A DNA stretch of 64,000 nucleotides. It comes from Flavobacteriales bacterium. GTDB lineage: Bacteria > Bacteroidota > Bacteroidia > Flavobacteriales_F > PHOS-HE28. The stretch is taken from the NCBI GenBank assembly GCA_044346705.1, contig JBIIYP010000012.1, positions 20,117 to 84,116 on the forward strand, in the 5' to 3' direction. Position numbers and translations under genes: made by a program. Numbering within the stretch: position 1 is the first letter of the stretch; each line of letters opens with the position of its first letter. A model generated the notes under the pieces. The model was given only the letters and a program-made list of their open reading frames with translations. It had not been told where the DNA came from and did not search any database. Below are positions 46,158-46,775 of this stretch, piece by piece.

Positions 46158-46775
46158 GTGAAGAGGATGGAGGTGGAAGAGAGGCTACCTGAAGAGGCGA
46201 TCGCCGCACGGACCTGCCTTGCCGGCAGGCAGGTCCATTGGGTCCGCAGCCAGAAGGTGATGTTGGATGCGGACCTGGCGCGCCTTTACGGGGTCCCGAC
46301 CAAGGAGCTCAACCTCAAGGTGAAGCGGCACCTGGAGCGTTTCCCAGCGGACTTCATGTTCCAGTTGACCGATGATGAATGGAGCGGTTTGAGGTTTCAA
46401 GTTGAAACCTCAAAGGGCCGGGGAGGTCGTCGTTACCCACCCTATGCATTCACCGAACATGGCGTCCTGATGTCGCCGACGCGCCAAAGCCGCTTTGGCG
46501 ACGGCGCGCTCAGCAGCGTGTTGAACAGCGAACGGGCCATCGCCGTCAACACCTGCCTGTCCGGCAGGCAGGTCCGCATCATGCGGGTCTTCGTGCGCAT
46601 GAACCGCCTGTTGCAGAGCGACCTGGAGCTTCAGCTGCGGATGGAGCGCATGGAAAGTCGCCAGGGCCGGATGGAAGAGGACCTCGGCGGCTTGTTCGAA
46701 GCGGTGAAGCAGCTGATGGAGGAGCCCGGTGCGGAGCGCAGGCGGCTGGGCTATAAAGGAGGAGACACGATCTGA
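46158..46775 (+). CDS. ORF6N (KilA-N-like) DNA-binding domain protein with three in-frame palindromic insertions
   Basis: QKVMLDADLARLYGV, ERFPADFMFQLT, GGRRYPPYAFTEHGV, LSSVLNSERAI, IMRVFV; C-terminal coiled coil and RRRLGY. Confidence 0.9.
   Translation: MKRMEVEERLPEEAIAARTCLAGRQVHWVRSQKVMLDADLARLYGVPTKELNLKVKRHLERFPADFMFQLTDDEWSGLRFQVETSKGRGGRRYPPYAFTEHGVLMSPTRQSRFGDGALSSVLNSERAIAVNTCLSGRQVRIMRVFVRMNRLLQSDLELQLRMERMESRQGRMEEDLGGLFEAVKQLMEEPGAERRRLGYKGGDTI
46213..46233. repeat. 21-nt REP-like palindrome inside ORF6N (copy 1)
   Basis: CCTGCCTTGCCGGCAGGCAGG; removing it restores ATC (Ile) in IAAR-I-HWVRSQKVML. Confidence 0.85.
46473..46508. repeat. 36-nt REP-like hairpin insertion inside ORF6N
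   Basis: Contains CGCCAAAGC-C-GCTTTGGCG; removing it restores TEHGVLM-LSSVLNS. Confidence 0.8.
46552..46572. repeat. 21-nt REP-like palindrome inside ORF6N (copy 2)
   Basis: CCTGCCTGTCCGGCAGGCAGG; removing it restores ATC (Ile) in AIAVN-I-RIMRVFV. Confidence 0.85.

Follow-up and report, generated by a model that had tools for sequence, protein, structure and literature searches.

Twin 21-nucleotide palindromes in an ORF6N gene are exact insertions of a cross-phylum hairpin family linked to a small GIY-YIG nuclease

How do two nearly identical 21-nucleotide (nt) palindromes come to stand, both in frame, inside a single conserved gene? This question is raised by a 64,000-nt stretch of a Flavobacteriales genome (GCA_044346705.1, contig JBIIYP010000012.1, positions 20,117 to 84,116; C91:20117-84116 in our contig numbering), referred to below as the window, which carries a gene for an ORF6N-domain protein (46167-46775, + strand; Pfam PF10543, E=1.6e-29; 202 amino acids (aa) counted from the ATG common to the orthologues). 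Pattern matching places copy 1 of the palindrome (CCTGCCTTGCCGGCAGGCAGG) at 46213-46233 and copy 2 (CCTGCCTGTCCGGCAGGCAGG) at 46552-46572, both on the + strand and both representing the 21-nt isoform of an element that we call E. The two copies have the same orientation, differ at two central positions and share an extra T in the left half, and the number of matches to the twin palindrome expected by chance in the window is 0.04 on average (100 dinucleotide-preserving shuffles). A sequence-only reading of the window had correctly recognised this pair, and had attributed it to duplication-free insertion at a fixed, frame-preserving A^TC target (the caret marks the junction), either by HUH (Y1) single-strand transposition or by template switching. 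Here we find that both copies are indeed exact insertions, that they belong to a hairpin family spread across phyla, and that the data point to a small GIY-YIG nuclease, not to an HUH transposase, as the partner of E.

The DNA of the ORF6N gene was aligned with that of five congeneric orthologues in syntenic position, whose proteins are 65-80% identical; in all of them the start of the downstream gene is conserved. Both palindromes are missing in all five orthologues, with gaps of exactly 21 nt each. The empty versions read GGA^TCC, AGA^TCC, GTA^TCC and GCA^TCC at site 1, and ACA^TCC, ATA^TCC and ACA^TCA at site 2, that is, A^TC in every version listed, mostly as A^TCC and once as A^TCA. Ten more homologues from other genera and families likewise lack the inserts, bringing the total to 15. 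Because the empty sites read straight through with 21-nt gaps, the insertions are clean, with no target duplication and nothing lost. Copies 1 and 2 are thus independent, exact, duplication-free insertions of a defined 20/21-nt unit, and the alignment bears out the proposed entry of both, in the same orientation, between A and TC of an ATC codon. Copy 1 turns Ile16 of the ORF6N protein into TCLAGRQV, a net gain of 7 aa, and copy 2 turns the Ile in AIAVN-I-RIMRVF into TCLSGRQV. Both copies behave like in-frame coding palindromes (the gene is conserved, the frame is kept and the orthologues are empty), a likeness of behaviour only and not of sequence relatedness. Copy 1 with its flanks folds, as had been suggested, into an extended DNA stem, computed here at 10 bp rather than 9 bp (-11.3 kcal/mol, z=-4.4). 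Stem extension by flanks was also considered as a general rule for E and rejected, as it was the same as at random positions.

The E consensus, CCTGCCTGCCGGCAGGCAGG, is a perfect 20-nt palindrome, (CCTG)2-CC^GG-(CAGG)2 with the caret at its centre, and the 21-nt forms have one added apex base; both forms are stop-free in all six frames. The whole assembly (3.99 Mb, 101 contigs, 62% G+C; genome G000 in our numbering) and 60 relatives were searched with the strict pattern CCTGCCT-N3-7-AGGCAGG, and the reversed control pattern gave 0-1 matches in every one of these genomes. This genome holds 32 strict copies, and 58 matches to the consensus at three errors or fewer versus about 5 in shuffles. Among the 60 relatives, the distribution is patchy (0-96 strict copies): seven members of the same genus, including this genome, have 15-60 copies (60, 26, 23, 21, 16 and 15 in the six congeners) and most have 0-4, and genomes from other families of the class reach 96, 22, 12, 8 and 6. 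A cross-phylum scan with one genome per prokaryotic species yielded at least 120 stretches with E. Among the matches listed, the identical 20-mer occurs in at least ten phyla, with carriers in Bacteroidota, many lineages of the candidate phyla radiation (CPR)/Patescibacteria, Omnitrophota, Planctomycetota, Nitrospirota, Chloroflexota, Gammaproteobacteria, Deltaproteobacteria, Bdellovibrionales and Ignavibacteria; these hosts include cultured isolates and DNA down to 26% G+C, often AT-rich. Copy 2 of the window is the common 21-nt isoform, which recurs in other phyla (e.g. loci L105, L112 and L125), and E was also found in 94 viral contig stretches, several of them with many copies. E is self-nesting, with copies at the exact centre of other copies (e.g. 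L124, L132, L140, L173 and L180); others occupy the tip or the loop margin of hairpins unrelated to E. Of about 110 cross-phylum matches listed, 8 have a tRNA gene within 150 nt. The E 20-mer was not found in the collection of papers searched by sequence, and Rfam contained nothing relevant for it. E represents a hairpin family of the Ssn/REP kind that had not been described, and it stands out by its size, its identity across phyla, its self-nesting and a tRNA-embedded nuclease cassette. A full-length insertion sequence with inverted ends giving E was considered as a source and rejected, as this genome yielded no two half-sites with matching ends at a distance of 30-6000 nt.

Several arrangements of E were recorded alongside this survey. 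Two viral contigs each hold 6-8 or more copies, namely IMGVR_UViG_3300038551_000082 (L296, L308 and L288; mostly the 21-nt isoform) and IMGVR_UViG_3300037242_000417 (L324, L335 and L339). In this genome, a mosaic repeat of about 160 bp, composed of nested hairpins (CCCCTCC..GGAGGGG and others), is found at contig ends; E is present at two fixed positions in some copies of this repeat and missing there in others (C79:1-5600, C72:10900-11176, C35:1300-2100, C67:3350-3560 and C10:69100-69386). An 18-nt version of E, CCTGCCTCGGCAGGCAGG, occurs four times at 66-93-nt spacing in C12:3902-4159, in one open frame of 600 codons and in the same phase, within a tandemly repeated segment.

The gene linked to E encodes a single-domain GIY-YIG protein of about 80 aa (mostly 77-85 aa), with PF01541 as its sole domain and nothing more specific in NCBIfam. 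In the G052 nuclease (MVCAVY6...EYIY17VG...RKRE63K), Y6, Y17 and E63 equal, by position only, the catalytic Y6, Y17 and E64 of SsnA, one of the Ssn nucleases that cut single-stranded DNA a few nt upstream of the hairpin repeats flanking their own genes (PMC11893778). Small GIY-YIG genes were examined in ten E-rich genomes, and those of one clade adjoin E: on both sides in G030, G046 and G006, at 39 nt in G052 and at 170 nt in G045. In G036, E lies 266 nt from a GIY-YIG gene, but one of another type. The remaining GIY-YIG loci fetched from E-rich genomes had no adjacent E, the sole copy at L223 of G045 being 1.45 kb off. We then looked up eight of 378 database homologues of the nuclease (56-72% identity), picked blind to E by identity spread and contig size, and E was adjacent in all eight, 25-90 nt upstream of the start in seven and 56 and 107 nt downstream in one. 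In loci fetched by the E pattern alone, a hidden Markov model (HMM) of the clade, run on open reading frames (ORFs) of at least 45 aa, identified a nuclease gene 20-80 nt from E, among the loci listed, in metagenome-assembled genomes of Saccharibacteria, Thermodesulfobacteriota and Bacteroidota and in a WWE3 genome, and the Saccharibacteria nuclease is 57% identical to a Bacteroidota protein. The HMM further gave two weaker cases in cross-phylum loci and two E-bearing viral contigs with the nuclease, although back-translated patterns for the nuclease had found no match in viral contigs. Among the carriers is an isolate, Chryseotalea sanaruensis (nuclease locus L264).

The association also holds between genomes. 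Within the genus, the nuclease is present in 5 of the 7 E-rich genomes (in G051 as fragments only) versus 1 of 30 E-poor ones (Fisher p=2.7e-4), and enzyme and hairpin co-vary: beside the G011 nuclease (58-62% identity), the same tRNA sites hold hairpins of the CCTCCC..GGGAGG type, and the G055 nuclease (49% identity) has CCTGCCTACGTGCCGCAGGCAGG on its flanks. When neighbouring ORFs of at least 90 aa were clustered over the 120 cross-phylum loci listed, the recurrent neighbours comprised three RAYTs only; the nuclease was missed there because it is shorter than the 90-aa cut-off.

The nuclease gene has a characteristic location. Of the 18 nuclease loci scanned for tRNAs, 12 have the ORF between two tRNA sequences: a partial duplicate of a tRNA 5' half immediately precedes it, and the intact gene of the same tRNA (tRNA-Leu eleven times, tRNA-Arg once) immediately follows; the placement between a partial 5' duplicate, mostly of tRNA-Leu, and the intact tRNA is recorded for L262-L270, L225, L226, L235, L236, L214 and L254. 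E occupies the D-loop or D-arm of the leftover tRNA copy (GGCGGAA^TTGGTAGA and GGTAGA^CGCGC) or, in other arrangements, its T-loop (GCGGG^TTCGAGTCC), and the intact tRNA of the cassettes is without E. The arrangement of the nuclease cassette resembles a homing-type insertion in which the tRNA is regenerated. The possibility that E acts as a tRNA intron, or resides within working tRNA genes, was rejected with ARAGORN, which shows the interrupted copies to be partial or extra and to lie beside an intact tRNA. At L267, the duplication also takes in the final ~33 nt of the nuclease ORF. Some solitary copies have flanks of a recurrent kind: 9 of 323 non-redundant copies are flanked by ^TTCGA, including C46:61044 and C62:110535 in this genome, and 8 are preceded by TAGA^. 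Site 1 of the window, CGGA^TCC, is similar to the D-loop site CGGA^ATC of L262, a resemblance that is only suggestive.

In this genome, the nuclease gave no match at E<=1e-5, the best tblastn hit having 34% identity (C24:44688-44912), and no copy of E interrupts or adjoins a tRNA. With no close nuclease homologue here, the window copies are orphans, as are all 32. Around that best hit, at C24:44336-44906, two 81-aa GIY-YIG genes stand in tandem beside a tmRNA-/tRNA-like 3' end, with one and the same imperfect inverted repeat of about 115 nt after each gene. The hairpins that flank them differ from E, and the arrangement may represent a further nuclease/repeat pair.

The closest described system is Ssn/SRM, that is, NTS/dRS3 of Neisseria (Chenal et al. 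2025, PMC11893778). Shared with it are a tiny single-domain GIY-YIG enzyme (77-85 aa here, 94 aa in SsnA) with the same catalytic positions, a gene flanked by its own hairpin repeat of 20-50 nt, amplification of the repeat in some genomes with none in close relatives, and diverged enzymes with diverged hairpins. Unlike the Neisseria repeats, E is perfectly palindromic over its 20 nt and lacks the conserved directional flanks that NTS has; it shows exact insertion with empty sites, self-nesting and in-frame coding copies, whereas NTS is rarely inside genes; and the tRNA-Leu neighbourhood with a partial tRNA duplicate is not mentioned in PMC11893778.

How does E choose its sites, and why is the reading frame kept? 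Over 204 non-redundant copies, the junctions were C^C/G^G in 64, A^C/G^T in 43, A^T in 32 and G^C in 21, and Y^R junctions (C^A, C^G and T^A) made up 12 (6% vs about 25% expected, p=1e-12); among the cross-phylum matches listed, 7 of 20 A^T junctions were followed by C. Given these several junction classes, A^TC is one favoured context and not the fixed target that had been proposed. In this genome and in its relatives, there is a degenerate preference for pyrimidines in the outward flank, where TTC, TCC, CTC and TCT are enriched 5-8x. The codon-phase bias expected from a fixed target did not materialise either, as the phase is variable among in-ORF copies. Coding context was assessed with a spanning-ORF test, in which the ORF extends at least 60 codons on each side of the copy; codon-usage scoring was tried and dropped as too weak, the ORF6N gene itself scoring near zero. 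Copies with a length divisible by three (3n) lay in long ORFs in 15 of 44 cases versus 16 of 122 for the others (p=0.006). The two window copies leave the frame intact by virtue of their 21-nt length, and a 20-nt isoform at the codon of copy 2 in a paralogue on C32 breaks the frame. Frame preservation is therefore a matter of isoform length and selection, and not, as the sequence-only reading had it, of the target.

Flanks of Y1 (HUH) genes were checked for E at 7 genes in this genome and 30 loci in nine E-rich relatives. E was absent beside all 7 genes here and beside the five Y1 loci retrieved from G030, a relative with 96 E copies and 7 Y1 matches. Of the suggested HUH/Y1 transposition, the lack of duplication stands, and neither a single target word nor E at these Y1 genes was found. 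Among the loci fetched from the nine relatives, only the RAYTs of G051 have E arrays; single copies lie about 240 nt from a G036 RAYT and about 730 nt from a split G051 Y1 gene. On these loci, a RAYT appears unlikely as the general partner of E. In the 120 cross-phylum loci listed, three RAYTs are less than 8 kb from E, one of them about 30 nt away by its stop-to-stop ORF and about 50 nt from its likely start. E ends in CCTG/CAGG and has no terminal GTAG/CGTC tag; GTAG is found only internally, in the ..CCGGTAGGCAGG variant.

Two further observations concern RAYTs themselves. At L080 1240-1390 (G051:C167), head-to-tail 21-nt E units lie upstream of a RAYT, and a truncated E lies in the loop of the RAYT's own CCCATGGC hairpin. 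This genome has three classical REPtrons (C70:46593-46928, C62:36605-36826 and C37:37514-37735), whose hairpins are CGACCC-NNN-GGGTCG with GTAC/GTAG tags, CGAGCGTCCACGCTCG, and CACAGGCG-TCC-CGCCTGTG; the last family also forms a 49-bp tandem array at C52:30234-30854.

We consider it probable that E is the repeat partner of the clade of ~80-aa Ssn-like GIY-YIG nucleases, that its solitary copies have been seeded from the tRNA cassette and that the window copies are orphan insertions. A cassette of nuclease, tRNA and E would seed solitary copies with exact ends and without duplication, preferably into single-strandable, foldable DNA such as tRNA D/T loops, hairpin tips, the centre of E itself and pyrimidine-rich 3' flanks, e.g. 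GGA^TCC. Selection would then filter these copies, so that most would persist between genes, and within genes 3n copies (21 or 18 nt) would persist more often and simply be translated, here as 7 residues twice. This genome would have lost the cognate nuclease, leaving its 32 copies orphan. Because E is a perfect palindrome that gives the same hairpin on both strands, cuts at both hairpin feet could free or admit the unit, and transfer of the pair from phylum to phylum could rely on phages and on conserved tRNA targets. The data show the exact, duplication-free insertions, the family and its distribution, the link and co-variation of nuclease and hairpin, the 3n bias and the preference for foldable or loop DNA and pyrimidine-rich flanks; that the nuclease moves E and that insertion takes place on single-stranded DNA is our inference. 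A more far-reaching version, possible but in our view doubtful, would make E and the nuclease a minimal two-part mobile system, in which the 20-nt hairpin would be the whole transposed unit, the nuclease would excise or copy E and place it, with exact ends, in single-stranded loops, the gene for the nuclease would home into tRNA-Leu and regenerate the tRNA, and tRNA targets together with phage carriage would explain the cross-phylum identity. If this were true, E would be among the smallest mobile DNAs known.

Several observations weigh against nuclease-driven seeding. Published Ssn enzymes, SsnA included, are known only to cut, and no joining activity is known for them (PMC11893778); hence, they do not by themselves explain exact insertion. 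This genome is E-rich without a close nuclease homologue, as is G024, and many of its copies are still perfect palindromes despite the absence of the nuclease, a state that would fit recent nuclease loss or supply in trans. The SRM consensus HGTCWYN(0-2)YYVSBRHN(0-5)WNVSBRGN(0-2)RNCYNB fits none of 419 E copies (both strands, 15-nt flanks), which is why we call the enzyme Ssn-like, and this genome shows no SRM excess (21 vs 40-52 in shuffles). The 3n trend is weak in viral contigs (32/59 vs 25/59). Finally, G051 has two 95%-identical RAYT genes, each with 3-5 tandem E copies within 250 nt upstream. The lack of a known joining activity and the E-rich genomes without nuclease, together with G011, which has the nuclease and one strict E copy only, would equally suit a nuclease that merely uses E as a binding or cutting site, be it for autoregulation, for restricting single-stranded DNA that enters the cell (the role proposed for NTS/SsnA) or for cassette homing into tRNA-Leu, with E itself spread by another route, such as a different enzyme, hairpin-oligonucleotide ligation at nicks, or recombination. 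We regard this as rather unlikely, given the co-occurrence of nuclease and E in the genus, the co-variation of hairpin and nuclease, the lack of any other gene recurring near E in the 120 cross-phylum loci listed, and the fact that the favoured targets of solitary copies (^TTCGAG, TAGA^ and hairpin apexes) are the sites occupied inside the nuclease cassette.

The G051 arrays carry most weight for a different reading, in which a RAYT (Y1 HUH) would mobilise E like any ordinary REP and the GIY-YIG link would be secondary: G051 is the congener with the most copies (60), three RAYTs occur near E across phyla, and the three classical REP/RAYT pairs of this genome show that the machinery is present here. 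This reading, however, appears unlikely to us. The Y1 genes checked here and in G030 are without E, the G051 RAYT has no close orthologue in the other E-rich genomes (<=42% identity), the terminal GTAG/CGTC tag of the REP superfamilies (PMC3733652) is lacking in E, RAYT flanks are hairpin-dense, which E targets anyway, and the GIY-YIG link was seen in every homologue of the blind sample. Least credible of all, and very improbable, is a local origin of the palindromes by template switching, snap-back synthesis or quasi-palindrome correction, or as assembly or library artefacts. The lengthening of the copy 1 stem by its flanks (GGA/TCC) and the concentration of variation at the apex would agree with it. 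Yet the same 20-mer stands mid-contig at hundreds of unrelated sites across phyla, in isolates and metagenome-assembled genomes from many projects, which excludes the template-switch origin that had been put forward, and E is unrelated to the local sequence, has 3n isoforms enriched in genes and has a conserved partner gene.

Other short palindromic elements differ from E in scale or range. The Rickettsia and Wolbachia palindromic elements (RPE) are reportedly selfish palindromes found in frame in protein genes and translated, and are said to be about 100-150 nt long and confined to one lineage, whereas E is 20/21 nt long and occurs across phyla. SDR4-6 of Nostocaceae are reportedly mobile hairpins of 21-27 nt with exact ends, nested and with no known mover, said to be found in cyanobacteria only and to have had no partner gene proposed; the sequence of E is different. 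With REP/REPIN elements and their RAYTs, including intragenic REPs (Di Nocera et al. 2013, PMC3733652; Bertels and Rainey 2011, PMC3116915), E shares short, GC-rich, dispersed and mostly intergenic palindromes, some of which lie inside ORFs and are translated or are nested in other palindromes, but it is only 20 nt long, has neither the GTAG/CGTC tag nor a consistent RAYT partner, and is identical across phyla. The yeast mitochondrial GC clusters, as described by Wu and Hao 2015 (PMC4478555), are likewise GC-rich palindromic mini-elements that proliferate, merge and transfer between species; in contrast to E, they are organellar, with a main unit of 42 nt and reported putative target-site duplications, of which E makes none.

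The host gene itself has received more than the twin copies. A third palindromic insert of another family, TCGCCGACGCGCCAAAGCCGCTTTGGCGACGGCGCG, spans 46473-46508 (36 nt, no strand assigned) and is missing in all 15 homologues; like the genome-wide family and the 20-nt copy in the C32 paralogue, it had escaped the sequence-only reading. It adds 12 aa in frame (SPTRQSRFGDGA), reads CGTC-GCCAAAGC-G-GCTTTGGC-G-CGTC on the minus strand, thus with CGTC tags and a boundary uncertain by 1 nt, and folds as DNA into a hairpin of -14.3 kcal/mol; its core has a few kin in the genome (C52:74146, C87:1051, C62:110417 and C12:19576). According to the ORF list, the ORF6N reading frame is open across all three inserts. 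In an AlphaFold2 model of the protein (mean pLDDT 69), insert 1 lies in the low-confidence N-terminus, the 36-nt insert forms a loop with pLDDT <50, and insert 2 falls within a predicted long C-terminal helix (pLDDT 56-67), so that, judging from this model, the protein may be functionally impaired despite its open frame. The paralogue, at C32:28776-29338 outside the window, carries the 20-nt E at the Ile codon of copy 2 (AVS-I-HII), where it is frameshifted, and contains in addition a 36-nt palindrome of its own, six codons upstream of where the third insert stands in the window gene. ORF6N genes thus look like repeated targets.

It has long been asked how REP-like and Ssn-related hairpin repeats multiply, and E and its nuclease offer a very small test system for this question, with a 20-nt palindrome, an 80-aa enzyme, natural filled and empty sites, defined hot spots (tRNA D/T loops, hairpin apexes and the centre of E) and a cultured carrier in Chryseotalea sanaruensis. 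Ssn enzymes are under development as single-stranded-DNA tools, and this toolbox would gain from a clade whose recognition hairpin is new and fully palindromic. For the host proteins, such elements mean that even conserved sequences can gain 7-residue insertions, and one gene of about 200 aa here has three inserts.

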